Positions 8,046 through 60,642 of a DNA stretch of 64,000 bases are shown piece by piece. Below the pieces are notes generated by a model, which searched no databases, was not told the DNA's origin, and was given only the letters and a program-made list of their open reading frames with translations. Made by a program: the position numbers and the translations under genes. Origin of the DNA: an uncultured Actinomycetes bacterium (GTDB lineage Bacteria; Actinomycetota; Thermoleophilia; RBG-16-64-13); assembly GCA_963775295.1 (NCBI GenBank), contig CAVZIK010000006.1, forward strand, positions 1,813,038-1,877,037, given 5' to 3'. Numbering within the stretch: the first letter of the stretch is position 1; the number at the start of each line of letters is the position of its first letter.

Positions 8046-8064
8046 GAGAGGAGATTGGCTGCTG

Positions 8065-9419: not shown

Positions 9420-9457
9420 ACTGACAACGTCGGCCGCGACGGCCGGTGACGCCGGGA

Positions 9458-10132: not shown

Positions 10133-10151
10133 GGGGTCTTCTCCATCCTTC

Positions 10152-11312: not shown

Positions 11313-11492
11313 GCAATCACTCCCGTCGTTTCGAGACGACGCGCATGCCGCCCCTTCCAAGCAATGCAGCATACCGGAAAGGTCCGGAATCTGTGTTAAC
11401 AAATGGCAGCATTTCCGGACAATCGGCGTCTGGAGAAAACCGATGGGGCCGGAAGGTTCGACCGGGGATCGCGCACCGCGCGAAACGGGCGG

Positions 11493-44690: not shown

Positions 44691-45359
44691 CTAAACCCTA
44701 TGCTCCTCCCGCACCACCTTACGCGCCCCGGCATGCCAGGAACAGCTCCAGTCCTTGGCCGGGAGGATCTCGTCGAGCCGGTCCAGCTGGCCGATATTCT
44801 CAAGGCGCTTATAGATCAACTGCCAGGCACAGGGACGATCCGGGTCCACTTCGCAGTGATCTTCGGTCGAGCCGCCGCAGGGGCCGTTCAGTAGGCGCTT
44901 GGCGCAGCGGGTCACCGGGCAGATGCCGCCGAACTGGGCCAGCATGCAGTCGCCGCAGCCCAGGCATTTCTCGGTCCAGACGGCCTGCTCCTCCAGGGTC
45001 CCCATGAATTGGGTATTCAGTCCGGCGTAGACCGGTTTGTTGGGGAACCTCTCGGCGATGGCTTGCACGCCCACGCCGCAGCCGAACGACACGATTGCGT
45101 CGACGTCGGCCGCCTCTTCCGCCAGGTCCTTGATGAACTCGTTCTCGCATTGGCGTTCGATGGTGACCTGGGTCAGCTCCAGGGATTCGCCCTCGAGCTT
45201 GCGGGCCATGCGGATGGCGTAGGAAGCAATGCCCACCTCGCGCTCGCCGCCGGCCAGGCAGACGGTGACACAGGTGCCGCAGCCCACAAAAAGGACCTTC
45301 TTGTGGCCTGTAATGAGGCTCTTCAGCTCGGTGATCGATTTAGGGGAAGCGACAATCAT
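44691..45359 (-). CDS. metV: Methylene-THF reductase Fe-S/Zn partner subunit MetV
   Basis: GCGTCVTVC..GGERE, QCE.EF, GCGVGVQ, CLGCGDC, CPVTRCAKRLLNGPCGG...CE...CAW. Confidence 0.9.
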   Translation of the reverse strand: MIVASPKSITELKSLITGHKKVLFVGCGTCVTVCLAGGEREVGIASYAIRMARKLEGESLELTQVTIERQCENEFIKDLAEEAADVDAIVSFGCGVGVQAIAERFPNKPVYAGLNTQFMGTLEEQAVWTEKCLGCGDCMLAQFGGICPVTRCAKRLLNGPCGGSTEDHCEVDPDRPCAWQLIYKRLENIGQLDRLDEILPAKDWSCSWHAGARKVVREEHRV

Positions 45360-45361: not shown

Positions 45362-45826
45362 CTATCCTTCACTTTCCAATTGCTGGGACTCATCGGAGCC
45401 CGCCGCCCTGAGCGGGCTCGGTCCCAGGGCCCTGACCGTCTCCACCATCTCCTGCACGGATTTCACGAACGTGGGGGCTTCTGCGGCGGACAGATTCACC
45501 ATCTTGAGCCGATCTTCGCCCACGCCGATCTCGGCCAGCATCTCGCGGATGCGGTTCGTGCGCTTGCGCGCGCGCAGGTTGCCTTCCAGGAAGTGACAGC
45601 CGCCTTCCAGGCAGCCCGCCACCAAAATCCCGTCGATACCCTTTGTGAAGGCATCGAGGATGTGCTCCATCTCGATCTTGCCCGTGCACGGCGCATGGAT
45701 CACGCGCACGTTGACCGGGTATTGCATGCGTTTCGATCCCGCCAGATCGGCTGCGGCGTACGCGCAATAGTTGCACGCGAAGACGATGATCTCCGGCTCC
45801 CAGCCGTTTCCGTTGGAGGCCGTCAT
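45362..45826 (-). CDS. mvhD: MvhD/FlpD [2Fe-2S] subunit
   Basis: FACNYCAYAAADLAG, PCTGK, GCLEGGCHFLEGN. Confidence 0.93.
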   Translation of the reverse strand: MTASNGNGWEPEIIVFACNYCAYAAADLAGSKRMQYPVNVRVIHAPCTGKIEMEHILDAFTKGIDGILVAGCLEGGCHFLEGNLRARKRTNRIREMLAEIGVGEDRLKMVNLSAAEAPTFVKSVQEMVETVRALGPSPLRAAGSDESQQLESEG

Positions 45827-48800
45827 GCTTTCACTCCGTCCACGAGCAGTTCGTCCAGCATGGCGACCAGCGCGTCGTCTTCCTGATGCTGCAGGGTGAT
45901 CGCCCTGGCCGGGCACGACGCGGCGCAACTGCCGCAGCCCATGCACATGGCGCCCTGTATCTCCGCCTTACCGAGCACGTTGATCATGGGAGCGCCGTAG
46001 GGACAGACCTTGACGCAGGTGGCACACGCCACGCAGTTCTCCGGATCGACCTTGGCTACCTGTCCCGGGATCTCCAGATGCGTCTTGGAGAGGACGGTCG
46101 TGGCGCGGCCCACCGTGGCCTGAGCCTGGGCGATGGTCTCGTCCATGAACCTGGGGGAGTGAGCGAGGCCGCACAGGAACTCACCCTCGTTGGCTAGATC
46201 GACCGGGCGGAGCTTGGGATGCGCCTCCAAGAAGAATCCGTCGGCGGTGAGGGCGCTGCGCAGTTGTCCGGAGAGCACCGGGTTTCCCTCGGCCGGAGCG
46301 ATGCCGGTGGAGAGCACCAGCAGGTCGGGGCGCAAGACCAGGTCGCGATTATTCGACGCGTCGTTCACCGTCACTTTGAGCCGCCCGCCGTCTTCGACCA
46401 CGATGGGGTCGTTCTTCTCGGGATAGCGCACGAACAGCACGCCTTCTTCTCTGGCTTTTTGGAAGAATGTCTCGCGGAATCCGTAGGTGCGGATGTCCCG
46501 CCCCAGGACCGCCACGTTGGCGTCGGGTAGACGGCGCTTGATCTCGAGGGCGTTCTTGACCGCCTCCGAGCAGCACACCCGGCTGCAGTACTGGTGTTCG
46601 TCGTTGCGGCTCTCCACGCACTGGATCATCACCACTGTGGGATTCTGCTTGCCCTGCAGTTCCGCCGGTAGAGCGCCGTCCAGCAGAGCCGCCTCCAGCT
46701 TGCTCTGGGTGGTCACGTGCGGGTTCTTGCCGTGCAGGTACAACTCGGTTTGCCGTTCCCGGCCGCCGGTCGCGACGATGATCACTCCGTGGCTGATGGG
46801 CACTTCCGTGCCGGCCGCGTTGAGGACGCTCTTGAAGTCGCCCACATGTCCACTGAGGCTCGCCGCCGTGGTGTTGAGATAGACCGTGATGCCGGGATGG
46901 GCCTGGACCTTCTCCACCAGTTCGCGGAGATAGGATTCGACGTCGGCTCCTTCGAGCGTGCCGTGGACCTCGCGCAGCAGGCCGCCCAGGGCCGGTTGCT
47001 TCTCCACCAGGTGGACGGCGAAGCCTTGGTCGGCGATGCCCAGAGCCGCGGTCATGCCGGCCAGCCCGCCGCCGAGGACGAGCGCCGAGGCCGTTACCGG
47101 AAGTTGCCCGGTCTGCAGGGCCTTGAGATGCCGGGCCCGTCCCACGGCCATGCGGGTGAGGTCGACGGCTTTGTCGGTCGCCCCCACGGGGTCGTCCTTG
47201 TGCACCCAGGAACCCTGATCGCGGATGTTGGCCATCGTGAATAGATACTGGTTGAGACCGCTCTCGCGCAGCGTCTCCTGGAAGAGGGGCTCGTGCGTGC
47301 GCGGCGAGCAGGAGGAGACCACCAACCTATTGAGGTGATGCTTCGCGATCATGTCCTTGATGTGCTGCTGGTTGGTATCCGAGCAGGTGTAGATGCTGGT
47401 CTCGGCATGGGCGACGTTGGGCATGGTGGAGGCCTGCTGGGCCACCCGTTCCACGTCGATGACCGAGGCGATGTTCTGGCCGCAATGGCAGATAAAGACG
47501 CCCACCCGCGGCTCTTCGTCGGTGATGTCGCGTTCCCAGGGGTACTCGTGCCGTTGGATGAGGTTGCCCCGAACCTGGGCCAGTTGGTCCATGGCGCACG
47601 CCGCCGCCGCAGATGCTTGAGCCACCGACTCGGGGATGTCCTTGGGTTCCTGGAAGGCGCCCGCCACGTAGAGACCGGGCTTCGAGGTCGCAAGCGGGGC
47701 CAGTCGGTCGGTCTGGGCGAAGCCGAACTCGTTGAGGTCCACTCCCAGCCTGGCCGCGGTTTCGCGGACGCTGTTGGGGACCTGGATGCCCACGCTCAGT
47801 ACCACCAGGTCGAATTCCTTCTCCTGCTCGGTCCCGTCCGGGTCGAAGTAGCGGACCCGCGGGTTCTTCGTGCCGGGCATCTCGACCACGCGCGAGGGAA
47901 TGGCCCGGATGTATTTGACGCCATGCTCGTCGCGGGCGCGGTTGACGTAGCTGTCGAACTCCTTGCCGAAGGCTCGGACGTCCATGCAGAAGATGGAGAC
48001 GTCGAGGTCTCTCCCGTGCGCATGCTCCATGGCGACCATGGCTTCCTTGGTGGCGCTCATGCAGCAGATGGAAGAGCAGTATCCCTTGCCTCGGGCGGTG
48101 TCGCGGCTGCCCACGCATTGGATGAAGGCGATCCGTTCCACTTCCCCGCCGTCCGAAGGCCGCTCCACGTGTCCGCCGGTGGGACCCGCGGCCGAAAGCA
48201 TGCGCTCGAACTGGACGCTGGACAGCACATTGGAGTAGCGGCCGTGGCCGAACTCGCCCCGTCCCGCACCCTGGAACTCTTCGAAGCCGGGGGTGACGAT
48301 CACGCTGCCCGCATCGATCTCGATCTCCGTGGGCTGCATGTCGTGTTGCACCGCGCCGACGGTGCAGACCTTCACGCACTGCATGCATTCGCTGCACATA
48401 CCGCAGGCCAGGCAGCGCTTGGCTTCGGCGACGGCCTGTTCCTCGGTGAAGCCTTCACTCACTTCGCCCCAGTTGTGGCGGCGCTCGCCTCCCGGATGTT
48501 CGGTCATGTGCAGGCGCGGCGCCCGGGCGATTCTGGCCAGTTCGGTTTCGTCGGGGCGGGCGTCGGGCATCAGCTCGCCCCCGAAGGCGACCAGCTGCTT
48601 GCCGCGCAGATAGTTGTGGATGTTGGCCGCGGCCTTGCGGCCGGCGGCTATGGCTTCGATCGCCGTGAGCGGACCTTGCGGGGCCGCGTCGCCGCCGGCG
48701 AATACGCCGGGGCGGCCGGTGGCCATAGTGGTGTCGGTAATCTTGATGGCGTTGCCCTCGATCTCGACGCCTTCCAGCGAGGTTCCCTCGGTGCCTCTGG

Positions 48801-50355
48801 CGAAGTCGTCCACCAGTGCCTGCCCGATGGCGAAGATCACCGTATCGCACGGGATCTCGAAGAAGTCGCCGGGGATGGGCTCCGGACGGCGGCGGCCTTT
48901 CTCGTCGGGTTCGCCCAGCTTGTTCCGCTGGAACTTGACCCCGCTCACCTTGCCGCCACTGCCGATGATCTCCACCGGCGCGGCCAGGAATTCCACTTTC
49001 ACCTGTTCGGCGAGGCCTCCCTCGATCTCGTCGGGCGTAGCCGGCATCTCCTCGCGCGTGCGGCGATAGGCGACGGTGACCTCGGGGGACTTCCCGTTGA
49101 CGGACTTGAGACGCGAAGCGGCGCCCGCGGTATCGAAGGCCACGTCGCCGCCACCGATGACGACCACGCGATCGCCCACCGGCAGGGGCCGACCCAGGTT
49201 GACCGCCTGCAGGAACTCGACCGCCTTAATGCAGCCGTCGAGATCGTCGCCCTTGGCAGGAGCCGGGGCGCTGGCGTGCAGGCCTGGGGCTAAGAAGACG
49301 GCACGGTAGCCCTCTTCGAGCAGTCCGTCGACGGTGAAGTCGGTCCCGCAGCGCTGGTTGACCCGCAGGTCGACGCCGAGGGCGCAGATGTTGTCGATCT
49401 CGCCCTGAAGGACGTCCTGGGGCATGCGGTAGTCGGGAATGCCCACCCGCAACATGCCGCCGGCGACCGGAAGGGCTTCGAAGATGGTGGTTGCGTAGCC
49501 GTACTGGGCCAGGTCGCGGGCGCAGCTGAGGCCGGCCGGACCGCCGCCTATGATCGCCACCTTGTCTTCGTAGACGAGCGGCAGCTTCGCCGGCTGGTCG
49601 TCGGGGGTGCCGTGATCGGAGACGTAGCGCTTCAGACTGGCGATTGAGATGGGCTCGTCCACCGAGCCCCTCGTGCAGGCGGTCTCGCAGGGATGCGGGC
49701 ACACCCGGCCGCAGGCGGCAGGCAGCGGGCAGTCCTCGCGGACCAACTCGTAGGCTTCCTTGAACTTGGAGGCGGCGATGAGGGCCACGTAGCCCTGGGC
49801 GTTGACGCCCGCTGGGCATGAGGACTTGCAGGGAGCGCGCCCTTCACGCTTGGATATCCCAAAGACGTTGGGGATGGCCTGCGGATAGGGGCGGAAGATC
49901 GCCTTGCGGGTGCCGAGATTGCGGTCGAACTCGTTGGGCAGGTCGACCGGGCAGGCGTCGACGCAGTCGCCGCAGGCGTTGCACTTCTCCAGATCCACGT
50001 AGCGCGGGGCCTGCAGGAGCTTCACCTTGAAATTGCCCGGCTCTCCGGAAATGCCCTGGACGTCGGCCATGGTGATGATCTCGACGTTCTTGTTACGGGC
50101 TACCTCCACCAGCTTGGGGGAGAGGATGCACATGGCGCAGTCGCCGGTGGGGAAGGTCTTGTCCAGCTGCGACATCCTTCCGCCGATGGCCGGGGAGGAG
50201 TCCACCAGGTAGACCTTGAAACCGCTCTCGGCCAGGTCCAGTGAGGCCTGGATGCCGGTGATGCCCGCGCCACAGACCATGACGGCGCCAACCGGCTCGG
50301 TGGCGGTCGCCCCGCTGCCGGCGCCGTTCCCGTTGCTTTTGATGATCTCGCTCAT
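45823..50355 (-). CDS. hdrA: Large HdrA-like flavoprotein (HdrL type): two HdrA FAD modules plus an embedded GltD/NfnA-like NAD(P)H module and ferredoxin domains
   Basis: GAGITG, LDKTFPTGDCAMC, QCVGSRD, YCSSICCMSATK, PKDIPES; insert CKSSCPAG..CGRVCPHPCE.AC.R, GGGPAG, GGGDVA, YRR; second module FICHCG, CSPRTHE, GGGLAG, YCSRVCCSEAVK; C-terminal 2x CxxCxxCxxxCP. Confidence 0.93.
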   Translation of the reverse strand: MSEIIKSNGNGAGSGATATEPVGAVMVCGAGITGIQASLDLAESGFKVYLVDSSPAIGGRMSQLDKTFPTGDCAMCILSPKLVEVARNKNVEIITMADVQGISGEPGNFKVKLLQAPRYVDLEKCNACGDCVDACPVDLPNEFDRNLGTRKAIFRPYPQAIPNVFGISKREGRAPCKSSCPAGVNAQGYVALIAASKFKEAYELVREDCPLPAACGRVCPHPCETACTRGSVDEPISIASLKRYVSDHGTPDDQPAKLPLVYEDKVAIIGGGPAGLSCARDLAQYGYATTIFEALPVAGGMLRVGIPDYRMPQDVLQGEIDNICALGVDLRVNQRCGTDFTVDGLLEEGYRAVFLAPGLHASAPAPAKGDDLDGCIKAVEFLQAVNLGRPLPVGDRVVVIGGGDVAFDTAGAASRLKSVNGKSPEVTVAYRRTREEMPATPDEIEGGLAEQVKVEFLAAPVEIIGSGGKVSGVKFQRNKLGEPDEKGRRRPEPIPGDFFEIPCDTVIFAIGQALVDDFARGTEGTSLEGVEIEGNAIKITDTTMATGRPGVFAGGDAAPQGPLTAIEAIAAGRKAAANIHNYLRGKQLVAFGGELMPDARPDETELARIARAPRLHMTEHPGGERRHNWGEVSEGFTEEQAVAEAKRCLACGMCSECMQCVKVCTVGAVQHDMQPTEIEIDAGSVIVTPGFEEFQGAGRGEFGHGRYSNVLSSVQFERMLSAAGPTGGHVERPSDGGEVERIAFIQCVGSRDTARGKGYCSSICCMSATKEAMVAMEHAHGRDLDVSIFCMDVRAFGKEFDSYVNRARDEHGVKYIRAIPSRVVEMPGTKNPRVRYFDPDGTEQEKEFDLVVLSVGIQVPNSVRETAARLGVDLNEFGFAQTDRLAPLATSKPGLYVAGAFQEPKDIPESVAQASAAAACAMDQLAQVRGNLIQRHEYPWERDITDEEPRVGVFICHCGQNIASVIDVERVAQQASTMPNVAHAETSIYTCSDTNQQHIKDMIAKHHLNRLVVSSCSPRTHEPLFQETLRESGLNQYLFTMANIRDQGSWVHKDDPVGATDKAVDLTRMAVGRARHLKALQTGQLPVTASALVLGGGLAGMTAALGIADQGFAVHLVEKQPALGGLLREVHGTLEGADVESYLRELVEKVQAHPGITVYLNTTAASLSGHVGDFKSVLNAAGTEVPISHGVIIVATGGRERQTELYLHGKNPHVTTQSKLEAALLDGALPAELQGKQNPTVVMIQCVESRNDEHQYCSRVCCSEAVKNALEIKRRLPDANVAVLGRDIRTYGFRETFFQKAREEGVLFVRYPEKNDPIVVEDGGRLKVTVNDASNNRDLVLRPDLLVLSTGIAPAEGNPVLSGQLRSALTADGFFLEAHPKLRPVDLANEGEFLCGLAHSPRFMDETIAQAQATVGRATTVLSKTHLEIPGQVAKVDPENCVACATCVKVCPYGAPMINVLGKAEIQGAMCMGCGSCAASCPARAITLQHQEDDALVAMLDELLVDGVKA

Positions 50356-51245
50356 GATCGCGCTCCAACCGGCTGAGCCGGCTTACCGCCGAGCCCTTTG
50401 GATTCCAGCAGCTTCCGCGGATCCACTATGAGGCTGTCGAGCGACACCTCGCTCGCCGAGCAGCCCATGGCCAGACCCAGCAGTTGCGTGAAGTAGAAGA
50501 TGGGCATGTCGTAACGCCGCCCGTACTTCGCCGCGACGTCCTTCTGCCTCATGTCCAGATTGAGCTGGCAGAGCGGGCAGGCGGTGGCGATGCAGTCCAC
50601 GCCCGACGCCTGCGCCATGGCAAGGATCCTGTCGGTGAGTTCCACCACGATGCTCGAATCGGCGATGGAGAAGCTCGCTCCGCAGCACTCGGTCTTGTGC
50701 GGCCAGTCGACGACGGTGGCTCCCGCGGTCTCGAGGAGGCGATCCATCAGCGTGGGATTCTCGGGGTCGTCGAATTGGGTGACTTCCGGCGGACGGGTCA
50801 GCAGACAGCCGTAGTAGCAGGCCACTTTCAGGCCGGTGAGCGGGCGGCGGATGGCAGCGGCGATCTCGTTCTGCATGTCCTGGCCCATAATCTCCAGCAT
50901 GTGTCGCACGGGCGTGTTGCCGTCGTAGTCGCCGCCGACCACTTGAGCCACCCTGGTCCGCACCTCGGCGTCGCCGGCGATGTGATGATTGGCCATCTTC
51001 AAGCGGCTGTAGCAGGCCGCGCAGGAGACCGCGACCGTGGTGCCGTTCGCCGCGCGCAGGTTCTGCGCCGGCAGGGCGTCTGCAAGCAGCGGGTCGCTGC
51101 TGTGGGCCGCGGTGGAACCGCAGCAAATCCAGTCCTTTATCTCGGGGAGTTCCAGTTCCAGCTTGGATGCGACTGCCAGGGTGGAACGATGGAAGTCTTT
51201 GGCCGTGCCCTCGAGCGAACAACCTGGGTAGAAGACGTAGTTCAA
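50352..51245 (-). CDS. hdrB: Heterodisulfide reductase subunit B
   Basis: YPGCSLEG, WICCGS, CAACY, YYGCLL.RP, ECCGAS, CPLCQLNLD: two complete CCG domains. Confidence 0.93.
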   Translation of the reverse strand: MNYVFYPGCSLEGTAKDFHRSTLAVASKLELELPEIKDWICCGSTAAHSSDPLLADALPAQNLRAANGTTVAVSCAACYSRLKMANHHIAGDAEVRTRVAQVVGGDYDGNTPVRHMLEIMGQDMQNEIAAAIRRPLTGLKVACYYGCLLTRPPEVTQFDDPENPTLMDRLLETAGATVVDWPHKTECCGASFSIADSSIVVELTDRILAMAQASGVDCIATACPLCQLNLDMRQKDVAAKYGRRYDMPIFYFTQLLGLAMGCSASEVSLDSLIVDPRKLLESKGLGGKPAQPVGARS

Positions 51246-51808
51246 GGCTTACCTCCCTGGGCCGCCCGGCGGAACAGCTTCTCGCGCTCGCTTCGCCCGC
51301 GCATCCGCGTCCCGAACAGGGGCAGCTTGCCCTTTCTCAACATCGTGGGGGCTTTGTCGAAGTCCTCGAAGAACCGCTTCGTACGAAGCTTGAAGCTCGC
51401 CATGAGGCTGAGCTCGTGCACGCGACCGCGTTTGCGGACGCTGTTCAGGAAGATCTCCGTAAAAGCGGGTACGGCCGAGCCCGCAGCCATCTTCCTCTCG
51501 GCGAGACTCAGGGCTCGCAGAGCGTCGTTCATGGCGGCGATGTCCACTTTCTGCGGGCAGCGAGTAATGCAAGTCTGACACGACGTGCATTCCCAGATGA
51601 GGCGGCTGCGCAGCGCGGCTTCGCGTTGGTTGGTCTGAACGAGCCGCACGAGTTCGTGCGGCCTGATATCCGTGCGGCCGGCCACGGGGCAGCCGCTGGA
51701 GCACTTGGTGCATTGGAGGCAGCTCATGGGGGATACGCCGCTGGAGCTCTTCACCTGGTTGGCCAGGTTGCCGCCGATCTCTTGGATCTCTATCGTCAGG
51801 GGGGTCAC
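51242..51808 (-). CDS. hdrC: Heterodisulfide reductase subunit C
   Basis: CLQCTKCSSGCP, WECTSCQTCITRCP, GRVHE; GTG after GAAGGAG. Confidence 0.9.
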   Translation of the reverse strand: MTPLTIEIQEIGGNLANQVKSSSGVSPMSCLQCTKCSSGCPVAGRTDIRPHELVRLVQTNQREAALRSRLIWECTSCQTCITRCPQKVDIAAMNDALRALSLAERKMAAGSAVPAFTEIFLNSVRKRGRVHELSLMASFKLRTKRFFEDFDKAPTMLRKGKLPLFGTRMRGRSEREKLFRRAAQGGKP

Positions 51809-54408
51809 TTCTTCTCCTTCGAGCCGGCGAGCACCGTCAGCTTGACCGCTGTCACCTTGCGGTAGACGTCTTGCGGGTTGCGGAGTTGGCCGTCCACCGT
51901 GAGCAGGTCCTCGACTCGGATGCCGAAGAGCCGCTCGTTCTCCTCCAGGTAGCCGCGGATCAACCGCCAATCCTTCTCGTCGATGGAGGAGACCACGCCT
52001 CCGTTCAGTTGGCGATCGACCACCTGATCGTGAGGATCGCGGATGTAGATGGCGCCGCCGCTGGCCAGCGAGAACAGGTTGCTGCCCGGATATGGCGACG
52101 CCTGAGGAACGATCTGGCCGCAACCGTCGAACTCGATGCCGTTGAGGATGACGAATCCGCCTCCCGCCAGGGGATCTCCGGCCATGAAGGACTCAGCCAG
52201 GAAGTCCAGGCAGGTGCCGTTGATGACCACTCGCGGCCGTCCCACGGCGTTGATGAGCGGGCGGCCCGCTCCGTTACCGAGGACGAAGACGTCGCCGCCT
52301 TTGGCGCCGTACATGAAGGTCTGGCCCACGTCGCCGTAGATGACCAGCTTGCCGCGCTTGGCGATCTGGGCCAGCTGATCTTGCGCGTTGCCGTGGATAT
52401 AGAGCTCGAGGCCGTCCATGCCGCTCGCGGTGTAGTCGCCGTTGGAACCGTACAGGTCGATGCGGACGCCGTCGGTCCCTGCTCCCAGACCTGCTCCATG
52501 GAAACGTTGCCCGCGCAGGCGATAAACGATGAACCGCTTCCAACCCAAGCGGTATCCGGCGCGGAGCAGGACTGCGTCGCAGTCGTCGCCCTCCGGCGGG
52601 AACCCCTCGGCGTCGATGCAGAGCACGTCTTCGCCGGTTTGCGGCGCCGCCAGGCTGTCGCGCGTGTCCCAGGTGATCCTTCGCCAATAACCGGTGGCAG
52701 GCTCTCCGAAGAGCGGAGCTTGGTCGAACAGGTCGTCGAGGGTCTCCTCGAGCACCTGGACGACAGTGGCGCGGCGTTTGTCCCCCGTGGGGAAGCGGCG
52801 GTCGTGAAGTTTCGTGAGCAATTCGACGGCGGCGGCGCGGGACTTGGAGTTGTCCGTTCCTCCGAGCACCGCCCGGCAGAACTGGCGCAGCCGGTCGGCC
52901 GGCCACGAAGGCATGTCGCGTACGACCTCCGCGAAGAGGCCTTCCACGTCGCCTTGGCGCAGCTTCTCGGCAAGACCCTCGATGGGGCTCGCCTGATCGA
53001 CGTCGGCACACGGTAGGTCACAGCGCACCGTGCCCACCTCGTTCTTGACCTCGCGGCCGAACTTGTCGGCGCATGAAAGTCGCATCTTGCCGCTGTCGCC
53101 GTTGCTGCCGGGCGCCACCGTGAAGATGAAGGCGCCGCCATCGGTGGAGGAGCCGCCGCGGGCGTTCCAGTACTTGTCGGCCACCGGGCAGAAGCGCGGG
53201 TCTTCCTCGGCCAGGCTGCGCAACGTGGCGTCGATGGCCTGCTTCTCCGAGCATATGAGCCCGATCTGAACGTCTCCGCTGTCGGAAAGCGCGAAGACCT
53301 GCGGGCGGAGCATGGCGGTGTCGGTGATGCCCATGAGCTGGAACCTGTCTCCCTGGCTCCGGGCGATGATGAAGAACCACGGACCGTCCGGCGACGCGTG
53401 GATATGGGTCGCCTGGATCTGCCGGTAGATGGCTTGCTTCTCGGAAGGCAAGTTGTCGAAGTCGAGTTCGGTGGTGGGAGCCAGCGCCTCGATGATGTAC
53501 TCCAGCGGATACTGGTAGACACGGTCCCACAGATCGAAGAGTTGGACCGAGACCTCCGTGTCGGTGAGGAACTGTTGCCGGATGTTGCGTTGGCGCAGGT
53601 ACTCGCAGACCGAATGGTAGTTGGCGAAGTCGCCATTGTGCACCAGCGCCTCGTTCACTCCCACAAAGGGGTGGGCTCCACCTGGGTGCCAGACGCGGCC
53701 CTTGGTCGGGTAGCGCTGGTGGGCGATCCACACATGCGCCTTGAAGTCTTGGAGCTTGTAGTACTCCACGTTCTGCTCGGCGTATCCCACCATCTTGAAG
53801 ACGAGCAGGTTCCGGGAGTGGGAGAGTACGAATGCGCGTTTCTCGCCCAGCGAGGCGTAGTACGTATCGTTGAGCCGATAGGTGTTGCGGAACATGAACT
53901 CGTCTTCGAGCGCGCGTGGGGCCAGGTCCTGCAGCCCCGCGGATTCGGCAAAAGCCCTCAACGCGGCCGGCTTAGCGCGCACCACATAGCGGTGCACGTC
54001 GGGCGGGCGCACTTCCAGGCCGATGTCGCGATAGTCTTCGATGTGCTCCTGCCTAGTGGACAGGGCCACGTCGAAGTTGGGGAGGATGAACTCACGCTCA
54101 AGTTCAGCGTGACAGTCGTCGTCGAGCAAGGCTATCTGCAGCAGGTTGTGGCTTTCGAGTAACTCCGAGGAGATGCCCAGTTGCTCGGGGACGAGGCCCG
54201 CCGCTGCGATGCCGCCCCCCTTGCCGTTGCCACGGTTCTGCATCTGCTTGGAAGGCTCGTAGATGAACTTTCCCTTCACCGGAACGGTGCAGGCAAAGCC
54301 GGTGACGCCGCAGCCGCCTTCTTCCACCCGCTCGGCTCCGATGGGCTCTTCCGGACGGGTGTAGACCTGTGACCTGCTGGCCAGTAGACGTTCGGCATAA
54401 TCGCTCAT
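51805..54408 (-). CDS. gltB: Glutamate synthase-like subunit: class II glutamine amidotransferase domain fused to GXGXG (GltB3/FwdC-like) domain
   Basis: EEGG|CGV Ntn cysteine site, NRGNGKGGG, HQRYPT, HNGDF, TDTE; C-terminal GNAQDQ, GDVGQTFMYGAKGG, LAESFMAG, SLASGGAIY. Confidence 0.88.
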   Translation of the reverse strand: MSDYAERLLASRSQVYTRPEEPIGAERVEEGGCGVTGFACTVPVKGKFIYEPSKQMQNRGNGKGGGIAAAGLVPEQLGISSELLESHNLLQIALLDDDCHAELEREFILPNFDVALSTRQEHIEDYRDIGLEVRPPDVHRYVVRAKPAALRAFAESAGLQDLAPRALEDEFMFRNTYRLNDTYYASLGEKRAFVLSHSRNLLVFKMVGYAEQNVEYYKLQDFKAHVWIAHQRYPTKGRVWHPGGAHPFVGVNEALVHNGDFANYHSVCEYLRQRNIRQQFLTDTEVSVQLFDLWDRVYQYPLEYIIEALAPTTELDFDNLPSEKQAIYRQIQATHIHASPDGPWFFIIARSQGDRFQLMGITDTAMLRPQVFALSDSGDVQIGLICSEKQAIDATLRSLAEEDPRFCPVADKYWNARGGSSTDGGAFIFTVAPGSNGDSGKMRLSCADKFGREVKNEVGTVRCDLPCADVDQASPIEGLAEKLRQGDVEGLFAEVVRDMPSWPADRLRQFCRAVLGGTDNSKSRAAAVELLTKLHDRRFPTGDKRRATVVQVLEETLDDLFDQAPLFGEPATGYWRRITWDTRDSLAAPQTGEDVLCIDAEGFPPEGDDCDAVLLRAGYRLGWKRFIVYRLRGQRFHGAGLGAGTDGVRIDLYGSNGDYTASGMDGLELYIHGNAQDQLAQIAKRGKLVIYGDVGQTFMYGAKGGDVFVLGNGAGRPLINAVGRPRVVINGTCLDFLAESFMAGDPLAGGGFVILNGIEFDGCGQIVPQASPYPGSNLFSLASGGAIYIRDPHDQVVDRQLNGGVVSSIDEKDWRLIRGYLEENERLFGIRVEDLLTVDGQLRNPQDVYRKVTAVKLTVLAGSKEKK

Positions 54409-56039
54409 CGAGACACCTGCCCCGCCGCCGCCGGCTCGTCGTCGGAGAGCGGCTCGTCGCTGATGTAGCACAGCACGTCGCTGCGCCCGCGAAGTTCACG
54501 GATGGACTTCATTCCCAGGCGCGACAGCACGGCGATCATTTGTTCTTGCCAGGCGTTGTTGAGGTTGATAAGCCGCTGAGTGGACCACTCCAGGCTCATC
54601 TGCGTCATGAGGTCGGGGTCGGTGGTGGCGATACCGCGCGGGCAACCCCGGCCGCTCTCGCAGCAGGCGCAACGCACGCAACCCAGCGCAACCAACTCGA
54701 CAGTCCCCACCACCACGCCGTCCGCGCCGAGAGCGATGGCCTTCAAGGCATCGTAGGCCGTGCGGATGCCGCCCGAGGCGATCAGCGTGATCTGGTCGCG
54801 TATGCCTTCGGCCACGAGAAACTTGTGTACTTTGGGAATCGCGAACTCGATGGGCATGGCGATGTTCTTCTTGGCGATGTCGGGGGCCGCGCCGGTGCCG
54901 CCGTAGCTGCCGTCCAGGTGGATGATGTGCGCCCCGGCGTAGTAGCTGCCCACGGCGACCATATCGACATCGGTGGGGGTCGACACCTTCACGCTCACCA
55001 GACAGTCGGGATTGACTTCCTTTATCCAATCGAGGTGCTTCTTGTGGTCCTCCACGCTGTAGACGCTGTGGAAGGGAAACGGGCTGAACAGCGCGTTGCC
55101 GGCCACGGCCTCACGCATGCGGGCGACTGGAGGAGTATTTTTGTCGCCCAGGAGGTGCCCGCCCAAGCCGGGCTTGGCGCCCTGCGCGTACTTGAACTCC
55201 ACGATGCGCACGCGCTGGATGGTCTCGTCGCGCACCCCGAAGAGGCCCGTGGCCACCTGGGTGATGACGTGGTTGTCGTAAGGCCTGAGGCGGTCGTGAT
55301 ACCCGCCCTCGCCGGTGCAGGTGAAGCTGTTCCAGGCGGCGGCGGCGCGGGCCTTACCCAGGATGGCGTGGATACTCACGCTTCCGAAGCTCATTCCCCC
55401 GCCGTAGACGGGAATATCCAGGTGCACCTGCGGACGGCCGTCGCTGCGTTGGTTCAGGTCCAGACTCATGTCGATGTCTTCAGCGGGAACCGGTTCGACG
55501 GCGCTCGTCTCGTTCTCGAACCCCTGGACCTCGAACTTGAAGCGCATCTTGTCGAACCCGCCTCCCGAGAGGCCGGTGCGAGATTCGAGATGCGGCGGGG
55601 CGGCATGGCCGGTGGCGGCCTGATGCCAGGTGGAGATGATCAGGTCACCGGGCCAGCGCGGATCGCCCATACAATCGGCGGCGGGGTTGCGCCGCACCGA
55701 AAGCGCGTTCTGCGGGCATTGGGCAATGCAGGACTCGCGCGAATTGGCGCATTCGGGGCCGATGCAGAGGTGATCCTTCGGCCGCAGGGTGAAGGCGTAG
55801 CCCTCGGGCTTGACGTGCACCCCGTATTGGCAGACTTCGACGCACCGGCCGCAGGATATGCAGCTGGCGAGACGGTCGACCTTGTATTTGCCCACGGCGT
55901 TACGGTAGCGGTCGGGAGCGGGGCGGACCTCGCGGTCCACCTTCTCACCAGGCCACTCGCTCTGGCCGAGATGTGTGACCGGCGCTCGCGCCGGTTCGCC
56001 CTGGACTTCGGCAGGAATGGTTTCAAGTTCGATCGTCAT
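54405..56039 (-). CDS. gltB: Glutamate synthase FMN-binding (GltB2-type) subunit with N-terminal ferredoxin domain
   Basis: GGGMSFGS, TGEGG, QVATGLFGV, KYAQGAKPGLGGHLLGDK, VSVKV, DGSYGGTGAAP, SGGIR, GCVRCACCESGRGCPRGIATTDP. Confidence 0.9.
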   Translation of the reverse strand: MTIELETIPAEVQGEPARAPVTHLGQSEWPGEKVDREVRPAPDRYRNAVGKYKVDRLASCISCGRCVEVCQYGVHVKPEGYAFTLRPKDHLCIGPECANSRESCIAQCPQNALSVRRNPAADCMGDPRWPGDLIISTWHQAATGHAAPPHLESRTGLSGGGFDKMRFKFEVQGFENETSAVEPVPAEDIDMSLDLNQRSDGRPQVHLDIPVYGGGMSFGSVSIHAILGKARAAAAWNSFTCTGEGGYHDRLRPYDNHVITQVATGLFGVRDETIQRVRIVEFKYAQGAKPGLGGHLLGDKNTPPVARMREAVAGNALFSPFPFHSVYSVEDHKKHLDWIKEVNPDCLVSVKVSTPTDVDMVAVGSYYAGAHIIHLDGSYGGTGAAPDIAKKNIAMPIEFAIPKVHKFLVAEGIRDQITLIASGGIRTAYDALKAIALGADGVVVGTVELVALGCVRCACCESGRGCPRGIATTDPDLMTQMSLEWSTQRLINLNNAWQEQMIAVLSRLGMKSIRELRGRSDVLCYISDEPLSDDEPAAAGQVSR

Positions 56040-57460
56040 GTGCACACCTGACCCTGAGGCACGCGGGCAAGATCGCCGAATGCCTCTTTCTCGATGTCTT
56101 CCATAAAAATGGCGCGTCCTACTTCGCCGCGCAGGCGGCGGACTTCTCGGATACCCATTGCCCCCAACACCTCGATGAGTTGCCCATGCCACGCACCCAT
56201 GAGGTTGACCATGCGCTGGGAGGCATAATCGGTGTCGACCGAGGCGATATGGGCCGGACAGGCCCTGGCAGCGTCGCACTCACCGCCGCCACCGCACACG
56301 CGGCAGCCCAGGGCGACTAGGAGCGGTGTGCCCACGGCTATGAGGTCGGCACCGCAGATGATCGACTTGGCCATGTGCTCCGCCAGAGCGATCCCGCCGG
56401 CGATAATGAGGGTCACCTCGTCTCGCAGACCTTCCTTGACCAGTCGCCCGTGAGTCTCCCGGAGAGCGTCCTTGATGTGCCGCCCGGGCTTCCCGTTGGC
56501 CAAGCGCTCGCGGCCGTGCGTGTCGGCACACAGGTGGAACACCTTTACACCCGCCTGCGACAACTCGACGATGCGATCGGCGGTCTTGGGGGTGAGTGCC
56601 AGGCGCACGGAGATCACTAACTGGGGGTTGATGCTTCGAATCCGGGCGATGAGTGGAGCCGCGTCCGGGCCGTCCATTACCTGCACCATGCGTATCGCCT
56701 CGAGGAGGCGCGGGTGCCGCTCGATGTCGCCCACGCCCATGACGGGCACGACGTGGGACAGTTGCTCCGAGGGCAGATCTTCGGTGTCGTCGGCCGGCAT
56801 CACGGCCACGGAGTCGAGGGCCACGGCCGCTTCGGCCCGTGCGGCGGCCAGATGCTCGCTCTTGACGGGCCAAGCCGGCATGTCCAGGATGACGGGAAGT
56901 TGGATCTCCAAGAGACCGGCAGCCGGAGTAATCAGGGCGCCGTCGGGCGAGAAGCTCAAGCGCATGGGCTTGGGGCCTATGTCCACCGAGGTGGATATGT
57001 ACTCGCGCCCGTGGATGCCGTCGCGGGTGGGGCGGACGATCTCGGACATGTCCGTCCAGATGGAATCGAAGCCCGGACCGCTGAAGCGACCCCGATAACC
57101 GGCACCCGAGACGGGAATTCGGCCGTTGTCGGCCTGGTTCCAGGTGGTGAGAAGAATGTCGCCCTTCCAGTAATCGTCGCCCATGTCCGAATAGGTGGGG
57201 TTGACCGAGACGCTCAACAGGCCCTTGGTGCAGCCCTGGACGCACGATAGACACGCCTTGCATTGGTCGAGCGTTTCGGTGGAGGTATGCGGATCGCGGT
57301 TGAACGCTGCCTCGTGCGTGTACACGTCGTAGAGGCAACGCAGCTTGACGCAGTTGGTGCAGCGAGAACAGTCCTCACGCCAGTCGACGTTACCGAACTT
57401 GCCCACGCGATGGAATCGGGGAGCCACCGGAGCGGTGTGGATGTGGTAGCGGTCGGGCAT
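56036..57460 (-). CDS. Degenerate paralog of the glutamate synthase FMN subunit with N-terminal 2x[4Fe-4S]-type domain
   Basis: CSRCTNCV..C / CKACLSCVQGC; GFDSIWTDMSEIVRP; AGGI..KSIICGAD..GCRVC; MGIREVRRLRGEVG; lacks GMSFGS, TGEGG and QGAKPG. Confidence 0.82.
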   Translation of the reverse strand: MPDRYHIHTAPVAPRFHRVGKFGNVDWREDCSRCTNCVKLRCLYDVYTHEAAFNRDPHTSTETLDQCKACLSCVQGCTKGLLSVSVNPTYSDMGDDYWKGDILLTTWNQADNGRIPVSGAGYRGRFSGPGFDSIWTDMSEIVRPTRDGIHGREYISTSVDIGPKPMRLSFSPDGALITPAAGLLEIQLPVILDMPAWPVKSEHLAAARAEAAVALDSVAVMPADDTEDLPSEQLSHVVPVMGVGDIERHPRLLEAIRMVQVMDGPDAAPLIARIRSINPQLVISVRLALTPKTADRIVELSQAGVKVFHLCADTHGRERLANGKPGRHIKDALRETHGRLVKEGLRDEVTLIIAGGIALAEHMAKSIICGADLIAVGTPLLVALGCRVCGGGGECDAARACPAHIASVDTDYASQRMVNLMGAWHGQLIEVLGAMGIREVRRLRGEVGRAIFMEDIEKEAFGDLARVPQGQVCT

Positions 57461-57471: not shown

Positions 57472-58344
57472 TTACGCCAGTTGGGCGGCGGAAATGACCT
57501 CGCCGGCCAGCGCTTCGAACCCACCGCAGAGGATGTGAATGCCACGTACGCCCGGAATCGCCTTGATCTGCGCAGCTAGAGCGGCCGCCATGGCGAGACC
57601 CTCCTTGGCCGCGTCGGAGGCCTCGCTCAATTTGGTGACCACCGACTCATCCAGCGGGCCGTAGGTCTGCTGCTTGTGCAGGGACCGGGCTTGCTCTGCG
57701 CTCTGAAGGGGAAGCACGCTCGCGATAATGGAGGTTCGTCCGTCCAAACCGGCCGCCCGAACTGCATCCATCCACCCGGCAAAACCGGCCACGTCGAAAA
57801 CAGGCTGGGTGAGGAGGAAGTCCGCACCGGAGGCGATCTTCTTCCTGAGACGGAGCAGGTTCAACTCCAGCGGCTGCAGGTAAGGATGGGCTATCGCTCC
57901 GACGACCATGTCGGGAAGCTCCAGGCTCTTCACGGCCTGAGTGAGTTGCAGGGAGTCGAGATCGTTCGCCGAGGCCGCCTGCGGGCAGGCGCCGAGAGAT
58001 TGATGGTTGCCGCTCAGGCAGAGAATGGCGCTGACCCCGAGGGCAGACGCTCCCAGGGCATCACTTTCGAGGGCGATGCGGTTGCGGTCCCGGGTGGTCA
58101 TGGTGACCACAGAGTCGCGGCCTTCGCGGGCCAGGAGAGCCGCACACGCCAATGCCGAACCATGGATTTCGTCAGGGTTGTCCGCCACCACCACCGCATC
58201 GAGGCCGGAAGCCAGTACGTTGGAAAGCTTCTTGACCGCTTCCACGCCGCCCGTGCGCGGCGGCAGGCATTCGGCCGTAAGCACCAGCCGGCCCGAACTC
58301 AGTGCCTGAGCGAACCTACTCTTCGTTGTCGTCATCGCTTGCAT
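57472..58344 (-). CDS. metF: Methylenetetrahydrofolate reductase-family flavoprotein (divergent MetF)
   Basis: TAECLPP, DNP, TTRDRNRIALESDALGA..LG..ILCLSG, KKIASGADFLLTQPVFD, GIHI; start may be 58335. Confidence 0.85.
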   Translation of the reverse strand: MQAMTTTKSRFAQALSSGRLVLTAECLPPRTGGVEAVKKLSNVLASGLDAVVVADNPDEIHGSALACAALLAREGRDSVVTMTTRDRNRIALESDALGASALGVSAILCLSGNHQSLGACPQAASANDLDSLQLTQAVKSLELPDMVVGAIAHPYLQPLELNLLRLRKKIASGADFLLTQPVFDVAGFAGWMDAVRAAGLDGRTSIIASVLPLQSAEQARSLHKQQTYGPLDESVVTKLSEASDAAKEGLAMAAALAAQIKAIPGVRGIHILCGGFEALAGEVISAAQLA

Positions 58345-58924
58345 CCAATTCTTGGTAAGCCTCTTCGGCCTCTTCGGCTGTCGGCCCGGTGTACAGGGGA
58401 TTTGGGGCCAGGCGGTCCAAGGCCCGTAGTACTTCCTCGCGGATGGCAGCTATTCGGGGGTCTTCTATTTCGACCGCACAAACCGACTGGTGGTTTCCGG
58501 CATCCAGCGCCATGTCTTCGGCCGCGGTGCCGGGGAGATGGAACAGCATGAGGCGCTCGGCACCCAGTCCGACCTCATCGAGAATGTCCCGGAGAAAGTC
58601 CACCCGGCGGGCACAGCGTTTGCTACCCTCGAGCGTGTGACAATTGTCTTCCGCGCAGGCCACGGCGCAGACCAAATCGGCGCCCAACTCGAACGCCTTG
58701 AGGATGTGTTCCGGCTGAAGGCGGCCTGTACAGGGCACAAGCACTTCCTGGACCGAGAAGGGCCAGCCGAAGTCGGGCGCGGTGGGACGAGAACGCCCTG
58801 CGCTGTCGGGGGCGCTGCCGGGGCGGGCGCAATTGGCACAAATGAAGGCTGTGACGGCCGTGGTGGCGTCATCAGCACGGGTGGGCAGCTGGAGATCGCT
58901 GTAAGTCGGCAAAAGAGCTATCAA
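58316..58924 (-). CDS. mvhD: Second MvhD/FlpD-like [2Fe-2S] protein
   Basis: FICANC, VPCTGRL.PEHILKAFELGAD, ACAEDNCH..EGS..C.RR, GLGAERL.LF; start uncertain (TTG 58924). Confidence 0.8.
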   Translation of the reverse strand: MIALLPTYSDLQLPTRADDATTAVTAFICANCARPGSAPDSAGRSRPTAPDFGWPFSVQEVLVPCTGRLQPEHILKAFELGADLVCAVACAEDNCHTLEGSKRCARRVDFLRDILDEVGLGAERLMLFHLPGTAAEDMALDAGNHQSVCAVEIEDPRIAAIREEVLRALDRLAPNPLYTGPTAEEAEEAYQELDASDDDNEE

Positions 58925-59155
58925 AGCCCATGCCCTCCTCTAAGGCCTTTTTAGGGTCCATGAGAATACCAGTATCCGTATCAGGATGGCTTGTCCGGAT
59001 GGCCAAGACTTTGGAGCTGGGGCTTGTACGTTTGGACAGCGCCCCAGATCCAGAGCGATTATTCGCTGACAGCTTTGGCCAGAACAGGTAACCTTCAAAT
59101 CCGAGCGTATCATGGGACAGAGCCCGGGCCGGCACCGACACTGGGGGATGAAGAG

Positions 59156-60016
59156 ATGACTCGTTCTATCGACCCGATCGTCTCGACCGACTGGCTGCAG
59201 AGCCAACTGCCCAGCGGCGAGTTGGCGATTATCGACATCAGGTGGCCTGAGGAATACCAGGCGGGTCATATCCCGGGCGCGATCTCGGTGCCTTTCGGCC
59301 TCAATTCAGTCTGGGCCGAGTCGGACGACGAACTCATTCTCGAACTCCCCGCCGATGAAGACCTGTTCAAGGTGATCGGGGACTGCGGGCTCACGAAGGA
59401 TTCGAGGGTGGTCGTCGTGGGCAGGGTGGAGGAACCGCCCGCTCCGCCATATCCGCTCGCCGACGCTGTCAGAGTCGCAGTGACCCTCATCTACGCTGGA
59501 GTCGTGAACGTGGCGGTTCTGGCCGGCGGGCACGCGAAGTGGGACGCGGAGGGGGGAGAGACCACCACCGCACTCCCCGTCATCGCGCCCCTTACATACA
59601 GCGGAGTGCCGGATAAGCGATCGTGGGTTTCGACCGAGTACGTGAAGGCCCACATCGGCACGTCGGTCATCATCGATGCGCGCGACCCCGACCAGTACTT
59701 CGGAACCTCCATCGACCCGTTCACCGACATGCGTGGTCACGTTCCCACCGCCCGCAGCCTTCCTTTGATCTGGGTGTGGGAGGCAGACGGCACCTACAGG
59801 CCCATCGAACTGATCGAAGGGATGGCGGCAGGTGTCATTGGCAACGACAAGGGGCAGGAAGTGATCGCGTACTGCGGGGTCGGCGGTTACGCCAGCACCT
59901 GGTGGTTCCTTCTCACGCAACTTCTCGGATTCACGAATGTCAAGATCTACGACGGTTCTATGGAGGCTTGGGCAGACGGGCAGAATCCCCTGGTGCGCTA
60001 CAGTTGGAATCTCTAG
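59156..60016 (+). CDS. Tandem-domain rhodanese/sulfurtransferase
   Basis: IVSTDWL, GHIPGA, LAGGHAKW.AEG, IIDARDP.QY.G, GHVPTARS, active-site YCGVG, YDGSMEAW. Confidence 0.9.
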   Translation: MTRSIDPIVSTDWLQSQLPSGELAIIDIRWPEEYQAGHIPGAISVPFGLNSVWAESDDELILELPADEDLFKVIGDCGLTKDSRVVVVGRVEEPPAPPYPLADAVRVAVTLIYAGVVNVAVLAGGHAKWDAEGGETTTALPVIAPLTYSGVPDKRSWVSTEYVKAHIGTSVIIDARDPDQYFGTSIDPFTDMRGHVPTARSLPLIWVWEADGTYRPIELIEGMAAGVIGNDKGQEVIAYCGVGGYASTWWFLLTQLLGFTNVKIYDGSMEAWADGQNPLVRYSWNL

Positions 60017-60063: not shown

Positions 60064-60642
60064 ATGAAAGTTCTGGGCATAAACGGCAGCCCTCACAGGA
60101 ACGGCAACACGGCGGTCATGCTCGGCTGGGCTCTGGACGAGCTTCAGGCCAACGGCGTCGAGACCGAACTGTTCGAGTTGGCGGGCAAGCCTATCGCCGG
60201 ATGCATCGATTGTCGTCGCTGCTTCAGCAACAAGGACAGGAGGTGCGCGGTGACTTCGGACGCGTTCAACGAGATTTTGGAGAAGATCCTGGCGGCCGAC
60301 GGCGTTCTCATTGCTGCGCCTACGTATGTGGCAAACATCCCGGCCAACGTCAAGGCGGTCATCGAAAGAGCGGCCTACGTCAACAAAGCCAACGACTGGA
60401 TGCTCAAACGGAAGATCGGGGCCTCGGTGATAGCGGCCCGGCGGGGCGGCGCCATAGATGCGTTCAACGCCATCAACCATTTGTTTCTCCACGCCCAGAT
60501 GATCATTGCTGGGTCTTCCTACTGGAACATGGGTTACGGCTGGCGCGACCAAGACGTTCTCGAGGACGCCGAGGCCCACGCGACTATGCGCACCCTGGGA
60601 CAGAACGTGGCCTGGTTGCTGGAGAAGACCGTCGAAGGGTGA
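60064..60642 (+). CDS. Flavodoxin-fold iron-sulfur flavoprotein / NADPH-dependent FMN reductase
   Basis: KVLGINGSPHRNGNT, GCIDCRRC..N...C, APTY, RRGG, SSYWN. Confidence 0.9.
   Translation: MKVLGINGSPHRNGNTAVMLGWALDELQANGVETELFELAGKPIAGCIDCRRCFSNKDRRCAVTSDAFNEILEKILAADGVLIAAPTYVANIPANVKAVIERAAYVNKANDWMLKRKIGASVIAARRGGAIDAFNAINHLFLHAQMIIAGSSYWNMGYGWRDQDVLEDAEAHATMRTLGQNVAWLLEKTVEG

Follow-up and report, generated by a model that had tools for sequence, protein, structure and literature searches.

Glutamate synthase is the main gate through which nitrogen enters biomass. Here we describe three adjacent genes of an uncultured Actinomycetes bacterium that probably encode the catalytic core of a glutamine-dependent glutamate synthase (glutamine:2-oxoglutarate aminotransferase, GOGAT) made of three polypeptides, one of which would be an obligate, catalytically inert subunit serving both as an iron-sulphur (Fe-S) relay and as a stand-in for the central domain of canonical bacterial glutamate synthase (GltS). 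The genes occupy positions 51805-57460 of a 64,000-nucleotide stretch of contig CAVZIK010000006.1, hereafter the window; all window features given below lie on the minus strand unless marked (+). Their products, in gene order, are GluS_deg, a non-catalytic paralogue of the flavin mononucleotide (FMN) subunit; GluS_cat, its catalytic twin; and GAT_GXG, an amidotransferase fused to a GXGXG domain. We refer to the three as the trio. All three open reading frames (ORFs) are present where an earlier note on this DNA had placed them, and they are translationally coupled. The junctions between GluS_deg and GluS_cat (56036-56039) and between GluS_cat and GAT_GXG (54405-54408) are both ATGA overlaps; GluS_cat likely starts at ATG 56039, and GAT_GXG likely at ATG 54408 rather than at GTG 54471.

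An FMN subunit with intact motifs and a paralogue without them

GluS_cat (544 residues; 54405..56039) is a ferredoxin-fused FMN/synthase subunit of the archaeal GltB2 type. The Pfam Glu_synthase profile matches it with 299 bits, the NCBIfam model of the GltB large subunit matches it over model positions 864-1177, and it aligns without large gaps to residues 857-1172 of Azospirillum brasilense GltS (1ea0/2vdc; E 5e-53). The motifs GMSFG, TGEGG, TQVATGLFGV, QGAKPGLGG, QGAKPGLGGHLLG, SPFPFHSVYSVED, GGTGAAP and SGGIRT are intact, and they are invariant in 47 orthologues (alignment A3). Nearly all residues of the substrate/FMN loop, located by alignment with the Escherichia coli and A. brasilense enzymes (QGAKPGLGG...SPFPFHSVYSVED, residues 286-331; 55047..55184), are likewise invariant in alignment A3. 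The eight cysteines of the ferredoxin domain (C60, 63, 66, 70, 92, 97, 104 and 108; 55716..55862) are invariant in 67/67 orthologues as well as in that alignment. A further cluster site, CVRCACCESGRGC(P) (54642..54680), holds four cysteines (454, 457, 460 and 466) that are invariant in the orthologue alignments. These are spaced Cx2Cx2Cx5C and followed by P, whereas canonical GltS has three, spaced Cx5Cx4C. Three of the four align with the [3Fe-4S] ligands of GltS, and the fourth means that a [4Fe-4S] cluster is possible at this site. The earlier note had the catalytic copy keep GMSFG, TGEGG, QGAKPG.GG and the 3Fe-4S motif; the first three are indeed kept, but the cluster motif is not the canonical one.

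GluS_deg (474 residues; 56036..57460) consists of a ferredoxin domain, a rudimentary (beta/alpha)8 barrel and a cluster loop. It is a full-length paralogue of GluS_cat (28% identity, E 3e-41 by BLASTP), collinear from the ferredoxin domain to the C-terminus, which bears out the proposal of two tandem FMN-domain paralogues. The Glu_synthase profile (PF01645) matches it over positions 183-368 only, which is its C-terminal half (60 bits). All five FMN/2-oxoglutarate motifs of GluS_cat are replaced in GluS_deg: of the GltS set GMSxG, GEGG, QGAKPGEGG, SPPPHHDIYSIED and GGTGA, every member is present in GluS_cat and every member fails in GluS_deg. In a three-way alignment with E. coli GltB (L082), GMSxG has become LDMPAW, GEGG has become MPADD and GGTGA has become DTHGRE, and the 44-residue QGAKPG...SVED loop, the same stretch that is nearly invariant in GluS_cat, is deleted. 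The residues that replace the motifs are not conserved among GluS_deg orthologues, and the loss is common to 66 of these, so it extends beyond this genome. The alignment of FMN and 2-oxoglutarate residues that the earlier note had suggested thus leaves the 56036..57460 protein without a full active site. As judged from these residues, GluS_deg cannot carry out the glutamate-synthase half-reaction.

GluS_deg is under strong constraint

What GluS_deg has kept is its cysteines, as had been noticed before. The ferredoxin domain is of the 2x[4Fe-4S] type, and its eight cysteines (C31, 34, 37, 42 and C67, 70, 73, 77; 57230..57370) are invariant in 66/66 orthologues and in alignment A1. In the C-terminal cluster loop CRVCGGGGECDAARAC(P) (56258..56305), C386, C389 and C401 are invariant and a fourth cysteine lies within a variable loop; the anaerobe clade has CxxCxxCx5CP here, exactly like GluS_cat. 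This brings the invariant cysteines to 8+3 (11 in total), a content that fits an electron relay.

The most conserved part of GluS_deg lies just before the barrel. The loop WTDMSEIVRPTRDGIHGREYI (residues 135-155; 56996..57058), delimited in the orthologue alignment, is unchanged in 65 of the 66 orthologue rows, and the remaining row has a single G-to-S change. At 21 residues it is the longest unbroken invariant run in the three trio alignments. Across phyla GluS_deg proteins share 43-75% identity, with more than 70 invariant columns. AlphaFold2 (49 sequences) models the barrel confidently, with a predicted local distance difference test score (pLDDT) of 85-96 for residues 160-390, whereas the two most conserved segments of the protein, residues 117-154 and 436-457, receive a pLDDT below 50. 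Segments that are invariant yet disordered in the monomer are what would be expected of interface elements. GluS_deg shows the marks of a pseudoenzyme partner: its catalytic motifs are lost, it is nonetheless conserved, it always adjoins its active twin and it has been fused to that twin three times (see below). Despite the label "degenerate", which holds for the motifs and undersells the loop, its sequence indicates a protein that is not decaying and is under strong constraint.

Such constraint might also be expected if GluS_deg were an enzyme or a ligand sensor in its own right, with the loop and the phosphate-binding end of the barrel forming a new active or allosteric site for flavin, 2-oxoglutarate, glutamine or folate. 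The loop, the longest invariant run of the trio, is rich in charged residues (R143, R146, D147, H150, R152 and E153 would be the relevant ones), and SGGIA.AEHmaK and ICGAD are conserved. However, conservation is poor inside the barrel (about residues 160-330), where almost no position is invariant, the loops that contact the FMN ring and the substrate in GltS are all replaced or deleted, and the new site would have to be built from a loop that is modelled as disordered in the monomer. Moreover, the families that match GluS_deg are confined to PF01645, related FMN barrels and ferredoxin-type Fe-S domains, the last of these mostly below cut-off, and none is a catalytic domain of a different type; in Foldseek its model groups with GltS and other FMN-dependent (beta/alpha)8 barrels, which are the best folds in the PDB. 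We therefore consider an independent catalytic or sensory role improbable.

A glutaminase fused to the GXGXG beta-helix

GAT_GXG (867 residues; 51805..54408) comprises, according to Pfam, AlphaFold2 and a fold search, a propeptide, an N-terminal-nucleophile (Ntn) glutaminase, a helical linker and a GXGXG beta-helix. Pfam places GATase_6 at residues 223-294 (30.6 bits, cut-off 27) and GXGXG (PF01493) at residues 638-807 (46.3 bits, cut-off 32.5) and finds no Glu_synthase domain, in agreement with the earlier observation that the amidotransferase is joined to GXGXG and skips the FMN domain. In an alignment with PurF, the glutaminase domain begins at Cys33 (codon 54310-54312; domain 52999..54312) and carries an insert of about 130 residues relative to PurF. 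Cys33 falls on Cys1 of PurF, Arg232 (HQRYPT) on Arg73, Asn258-Gly259 (HNGDF) on Asn101-Gly102 and Asp283 (TDTE) on Asp127, and C33, R232, N258, G259 and D283 are all invariant in 44 orthologues. E30-G31-G32, which directly precede Cys33, are invariant in the same orthologues (the EGG/C site). This supports a propeptide that is cleaved before Cys33, and the propeptide site with an intact Cys1 that had been claimed is therefore upheld. The NCBIfam models that match GAT_GXG are GlmS, PurF and FwdC only, all far under cut-off.

The glutaminase is connected to the beta-helix by a five-helix linker (residues 479-562; 52723..52974), assigned from the AlphaFold2 secondary structure with pLDDT mostly above 90. 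The linker has no family match, and an hhalign comparison of it with E. coli GltB is not significant. The GXGXG beta-helix domain itself (51829..52551), besides its PF01493 match, aligns in hhalign to residues 1283-1359 of E. coli GltB (E 2e-5). The AlphaFold2 model of the whole protein (predicted template modelling score 0.80) shows an Ntn fold with the insert, the five helices and the beta-helix in succession. Its best PDB folds are GltS alpha chains (6s6s_A, E 7e-11; range 7e-11 to 3e-8), followed by PurF.

The trio is widespread and its inactive and active barrels are sometimes one protein

The GAT_GXG fusion occurs in at least 588 species genomes from about ten phyla (one genome per species; 588 of 600 candidates were confirmed), and clustering at 90% leaves more than 7,600 relatives, of which the top 120 share 75-93% identity. 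The earlier description of the system as unusual is apt with respect to textbook enzymes and does not apply to its occurrence in nature. For gene neighbourhoods we used the 80 best loci (81 were fetched, but L001 and L028 are the same stretch), which come from Actinomycetota, Acidobacteriota (Bryobacterales), Myxococcota, Desulfobacterota, Syntrophorhabdaceae, Dehalococcoidia, Planctomycetota, Armatimonadota and Latescibacterota. The order GluS_deg - GluS_cat - GAT_GXG is constant in every locus with enough flank, across Actinomycetota, Acidobacteriota, Myxococcota, Desulfobacterota, Chloroflexota and Planctomycetota. Glutaminase and GXGXG are fused in all 81 fetched loci, and the extra, inactive domain-2 copy is present.

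In three loci GluS_deg and GluS_cat form a single ORF of 980-998 residues with GluS_deg first: L039 (7054-9993), from a Planctomycetaceae metagenome-assembled genome (MAG), L077 (2300-5293), from an unclassified MAG, and L078 (6964-9942), from a Deltaproteobacteria MAG. The N-to-C order of these fusions is that of the central and FMN domains of GltB. They are direct genomic evidence that GluS_deg and GluS_cat act as a pair. About 1.7 kb downstream of the trio, L077 also encodes a 527-residue protein (9700-11280) that matches Glu_synthase over positions 185-309 only (59 bits); from this partial match it appears to be another truncated or inactive barrel.

The genes around the trio vary

The partner sets around the trio range from the ten-gene form of the window through HdrL without HdrBC, a six-gene form with MvhD, MetV and MetF, and MvhD only (L043, L053, L076 and L077) to no recognisable partner. 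The cultured Desulfospira joergensenii (L083) has the six-gene form; its operon is directly preceded by genes for a GAF-ANTAR regulator (6788-7531) and a PAS histidine kinase and followed by those for NAD synthase and a sigma-54 activator, flanks that point to regulation by antitermination or nitrogen status. At the other extreme is L064, a Desulfofervidaceae MAG in which MvhD, MetFV and Hdr genes are all absent from the 7-10 kb around the trio (7084-12592), whose neighbours are UbiD/UbiX/UbiA-family and lipid genes. The electron donor of this trio may be free ferredoxin. GluS_deg and its loop WTDMSEIVRPTRDGIHGREYI are unchanged in this stand-alone locus, which indicates that the partner of the loop is GluS_cat or GAT_GXG, and the persistence of GluS_deg without Hdr, MetF or MvhD indicates that its role is intrinsic to the synthase.

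Nitrogen-type neighbours are found in 29 of the 80 loci, from several phyla, each of which has at least one of Amt, PII, GlnA, CarAB, a class-I or class-II amidotransferase or a sigma-54 activator. Together with the intact 2-oxoglutarate/FMN motifs of GluS_cat, these neighbours favour a true GOGAT (Gln + 2-oxoglutarate + 2 e- -> 2 Glu) over N-methylglutamate-synthase-like or folate-linked chemistry, and a real GOGAT is likely. The alternative would be a glutamine- or amide-dependent imine reductase with a different keto acid or a one-carbon unit as its substrate and with a chemical coupling to MetF, either in a methyl- or methylene-tetrahydrofolate-linked reaction or in an exchange like that of N-methylglutamate synthase. 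MetF, MetV and MvhD genes do accompany the trio in most loci, and the glutaminase does lie outside the GltS GATase_2 family. N-methylglutamate synthase, MgsABC, uses the same three domain types as the trio: a class-II amidotransferase-like domain, GXGXG and the PF01645 FMN barrel. To our knowledge, however, MgsABC is without ferredoxin domains, Fe-S sites or a second barrel. Unlike MgsABC, the barrel subunits of the trio fit no NCBIfam model but that of the GltB large subunit (the trio as a whole yields only GltB, PurF and GlmS models), and the genomic context is one of ammonium assimilation and not of methylamine use. The motifs of GluS_cat closely match those of GltS, and L043, L053, L064, L076 and L077 have the trio without MetFV.

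The MetF proteins themselves also speak against a folate-linked reaction. In E. coli MetF, Asp120 serves folate binding and catalysis. Among 59 operon-linked MetF proteins the equivalent column is not conserved, with D in 33, N in 16, A in 5, Y in 2, H in 1 and L in 1. The MetF-like protein of the window keeps the Glu28 equivalent, and the TRDRNRIAL motif is conserved. In part of the family the operon MetF may be an electron-transfer flavoprotein instead of a folate reductase, and we regard chemistry other than GOGAT as unlikely.

The earlier note had the inactive copy wire the catalytic FMN to Hdr or MetF, but that GluS_deg is specifically a docking and electron adaptor of this kind is very unlikely: its N-terminus is Fe-S-rich and its gene sits between metF and the GluS_cat gene in the window, but GluS_deg and its loop are kept in MvhD-only or partnerless loci (L064, L076 and L077), and three fusions join GluS_deg to GluS_cat and none to MetF or Hdr. 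The broader part of that proposal, a structural or electron-relay subunit, agrees with the invariant Fe-S cysteines and with the fusion to GluS_cat.

Comparison with known glutamate synthases

In single-chain GltS the domain order is glutaminase, central domain, FMN domain and beta-helix. We compared the trio with bacterial GltB/GltD from A. brasilense (1ea0/2vdc/6s6s), B. subtilis (7mfm) and E. coli (b3212/b3213). Like these, it combines four modules: a rudimentary barrel, an FMN barrel whose substrate/FMN motifs are identical, an Ntn glutaminase with its Cys1, and a GXGXG beta-helix. The predicted cluster of GluS_cat lies in the same loop after beta8, and a GltD-type NAD(P)H module is present in the operon, inside HdrL. 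GltS is the best PDB match of the trio proteins in both sequence and fold. Unlike GltB, the trio carries its modules on three polypeptides in a permuted arrangement (rudimentary barrel, then FMN barrel, then glutaminase-helix-GXGXG), and its rudimentary barrel is a full-length, ferredoxin-fused, cluster-bearing paralogue where GltB has a cofactor-less central domain. The trio further differs in having a 2x[4Fe-4S]-type ferredoxin domain on each barrel subunit, four conserved cysteines instead of three at the cluster site, and a glutaminase with a large insert outside Pfam GATase_2.

The archaeal-type split enzyme has an FMN subunit with an N-terminal ferredoxin domain and no canonical central domain. 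Its domains are separate COG0067, COG0069 and COG0070 proteins (PMC8097209). The trio resembles it in placing domains on separate polypeptides, in the ferredoxin-fused FMN subunit and in the absence of the canonical central domain (PF04898) between glutaminase and FMN domain. Unlike the archaeal type, in which domains 1, 2 and 3 are all separate, only domain 2 of the trio, ferredoxin-fused, stands alone: a new helical linker joins domain 1 to domain 3, the trio always includes a second and inactive copy of domain 2, and MvhD/MetFV genes usually belong to the operon, often along with HdrCB/HdrL. Annotators at the Joint Genome Institute give the parts COG-type names like those of the archaeal-type split enzyme, and database labels read "glutamate synthase-related protein", "ferredoxin" or "hypothetical" only.

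The surrounding genes recall a further system, the MetFV-HdrABC-MvhD methylene-tetrahydrofolate reductase of Moorella thermoacetica (Mock et al. 2014, as quoted in PMC7325909 and PMC6085437). The Moorella complex draws on the same set as the window (MvhD, MetF, MetV, HdrC, HdrB and an HdrA-type protein) and is not known to contain glutamate-synthase parts, whereas the window operon has the trio, a GltD-containing, HdrL-type HdrA and two MvhD genes. The window also differs in the 12 kb that separate metF from metV and in the Asn that takes the place of the folate-site Asp in MetF.

A proposed mechanism

The favoured GOGAT reading can be put as follows. GAT_GXG would lose its 32-residue propeptide by a cut between G32 and C33, which would expose the Ntn nucleophile for glutamine hydrolysis, and its C-terminal beta-helix would have a structural role, as in GltS. 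GluS_cat would bind FMN and 2-oxoglutarate; ammonia and 2-oxoglutarate would form an imine that is reduced to glutamate. Electrons would reach its FMN through two ferredoxin-type clusters and the four-cysteine cluster at the GltS [3Fe-4S] position. GluS_deg would pair with GluS_cat as a heterodimer, and its three predicted Fe-S sites would lengthen the electron path toward whichever donor the genome offers, in this window MvhD, MetFV, HdrBC and the NAD(P)H-reading HdrL. The source of electrons in the window is probably NAD(P)H, taken up by the GltD-like module of HdrL and passed on through MvhD, MetV and the Hdr clusters. The stripped barrel of GluS_deg, together with WTDMSEIVRPTRDGIHGREYI, may hold the glutaminase and help to form or gate the ammonia path, much as the central domain does in GltS.

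For that last role there is a precedent: the GltS central domain has been described as a barrel in truncated form that may have arisen as a copy of the FMN barrel and that lines the ammonia tunnel (Vanoni 2021, PMC8097209). We considered and rejected a specific orthology of GluS_deg to this domain. When the GluS_deg profile is compared with E. coli GltB in hhalign, it finds only the FMN domain (976-1169, probability 95; central region, E 0.12).

Several observations weigh against the reading set out above. The SGGIA...GAD segment, which binds the FMN phosphate in relatives, is retained in GluS_deg, so that a bound flavin is possible in the supposedly inert subunit. The glutaminase is not of the GltS-type GATase_2 family (PF00310) and matches instead GATase_6, PurF/GlmS models and, below cut-off, GATase_7; an hhalign comparison of the glutaminase region with E. 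coli GltB is not significant (E 0.04). The central-domain profile PF04898 matches the C-terminal half of both paralogues about equally, with sub-threshold or partial matches in 39/49 GluS_deg members (best E 7e-8) and 47/47 GluS_cat members (best E 9e-7). This makes the central-domain role of GluS_deg an analogy and not a demonstrated homology, and the parallel, functional and architectural, is possibly convergent. Finally, a literature search found no published description of the trio, the enzyme or the operon, and what we say of the trio derives from sequence and predicted structures.

A bolder version of the GOGAT reading would make the trio a fifth structural class of glutamate synthase, one that keeps the duplication state ancestral to the central and FMN domains of GltS, either as two separate genes or as a simple fusion. 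The inactive twin would then be the subunit through which electrons enter, via three Fe-S clusters, and its invariant loop would complete or control the route between the glutaminase and the site where ammonia is used. With MvhD, MetFV and HdrL, donors beyond NADPH and ferredoxin could drive the very exergonic GOGAT reaction or be linked to it through bifurcation. Taken as a whole, we offer this version as a tentative and rather doubtful possibility.

The operon and its other genes

The trio belongs to a ten-gene, co-directional minus-strand operon in the order MvhD, MetF-like, GluS_deg, GluS_cat, GAT_GXG, HdrC, HdrB, HdrL, second MvhD and MetV. Six of the nine junctions are start/stop overlaps of four bases (ATGA, GTGA or TTGA), the MvhD and MetF genes overlap by 29 bases, and the two remaining junctions are spacers of at most 11 bases. 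The fraction of G and C at third codon positions (GC3) is 0.77-0.82 for the three trio genes. We rejected the trio being chance ORFs or pseudogenes on account of its coupled starts, this codon bias and its conservation across phyla. A scan of the operon for sigma-70 promoters and terminators gave nothing that exceeded shuffled expectation. A search for evidence of transcription returned 7% of words in one soil DNA run only, and no RNA runs were found.

Upstream of the trio, the first operon gene (58316..58924) encodes an MvhD/FlpD-like protein (PF02662, 82 bits) and is followed by the gene of the MetF-like flavoprotein (57472..58344; PF02219, 75 bits), whose Asp120 equivalent is Asn113 by alignment with E. 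coli MetF and by the column statistics above. Downstream, an HdrC-like protein (51242..51808), whose GTG start overlaps the GAT_GXG stop codon, and an HdrB-like protein with two CCG domains (50352..51245) were both identified by family profile matches. Next comes an HdrL-type HdrA (45823..50355; NCBIfam HdrA2, 922 bits), with an embedded GltD/NfnB-like NAD(P)H module at residues 173-683 (NAD(P)-binding PRK12771, 507 bits). The name HdrL is taken from PMC2702500. In the long-read MAGs L028 (14012-18500), L005 and L029, HdrL is broken into pieces that lie in different reading frames. This pattern is typical of long-read indel errors, and we therefore rejected selenocysteine and genuine gene breaks as its cause. 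The operon encodes two MvhD proteins, as a further MvhD/FlpD-like gene (45362..45826) separates HdrL from MetV; it was recognised by tblastn cross-matches with MvhD and has an ATGA overlap with the HdrL stop codon. MetV (DUF5981; 44691..45359; PF12225, 128 bits) ends the operon. Two genes diverge from the operon start, at 58991-60016 (+) and about 60150-60642 (+); by eye, one encodes a two-domain rhodanese-like sulfurtransferase and the other a protein like flavodoxin or NADPH-dependent FMN reductase.

Implications

The trio is probably a form of glutamate synthase, as yet undescribed and uncharacterised but very widespread, and it is a major natural family. Its carriers include Acidobacteriota, Actinomycetota, Desulfobacterota, Chloroflexota and Planctomycetota. 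If the trio works as a GOGAT, ammonia assimilation in thousands of soil and sediment bacteria proceeds through a form of the enzyme that nobody has yet purified. The pair of active and inactive barrels provides a direct experimental handle on a possible origin of the GltS central domain by duplication of the FMN barrel, and it bears on the part that this domain plays in the ammonia tunnel and in the coupling of the sites. The four-cysteine site and the variable donors (none, MvhD only, MetFV, and HdrL with or without HdrBC) form a natural series for studying how the electron input of one core is rewired.

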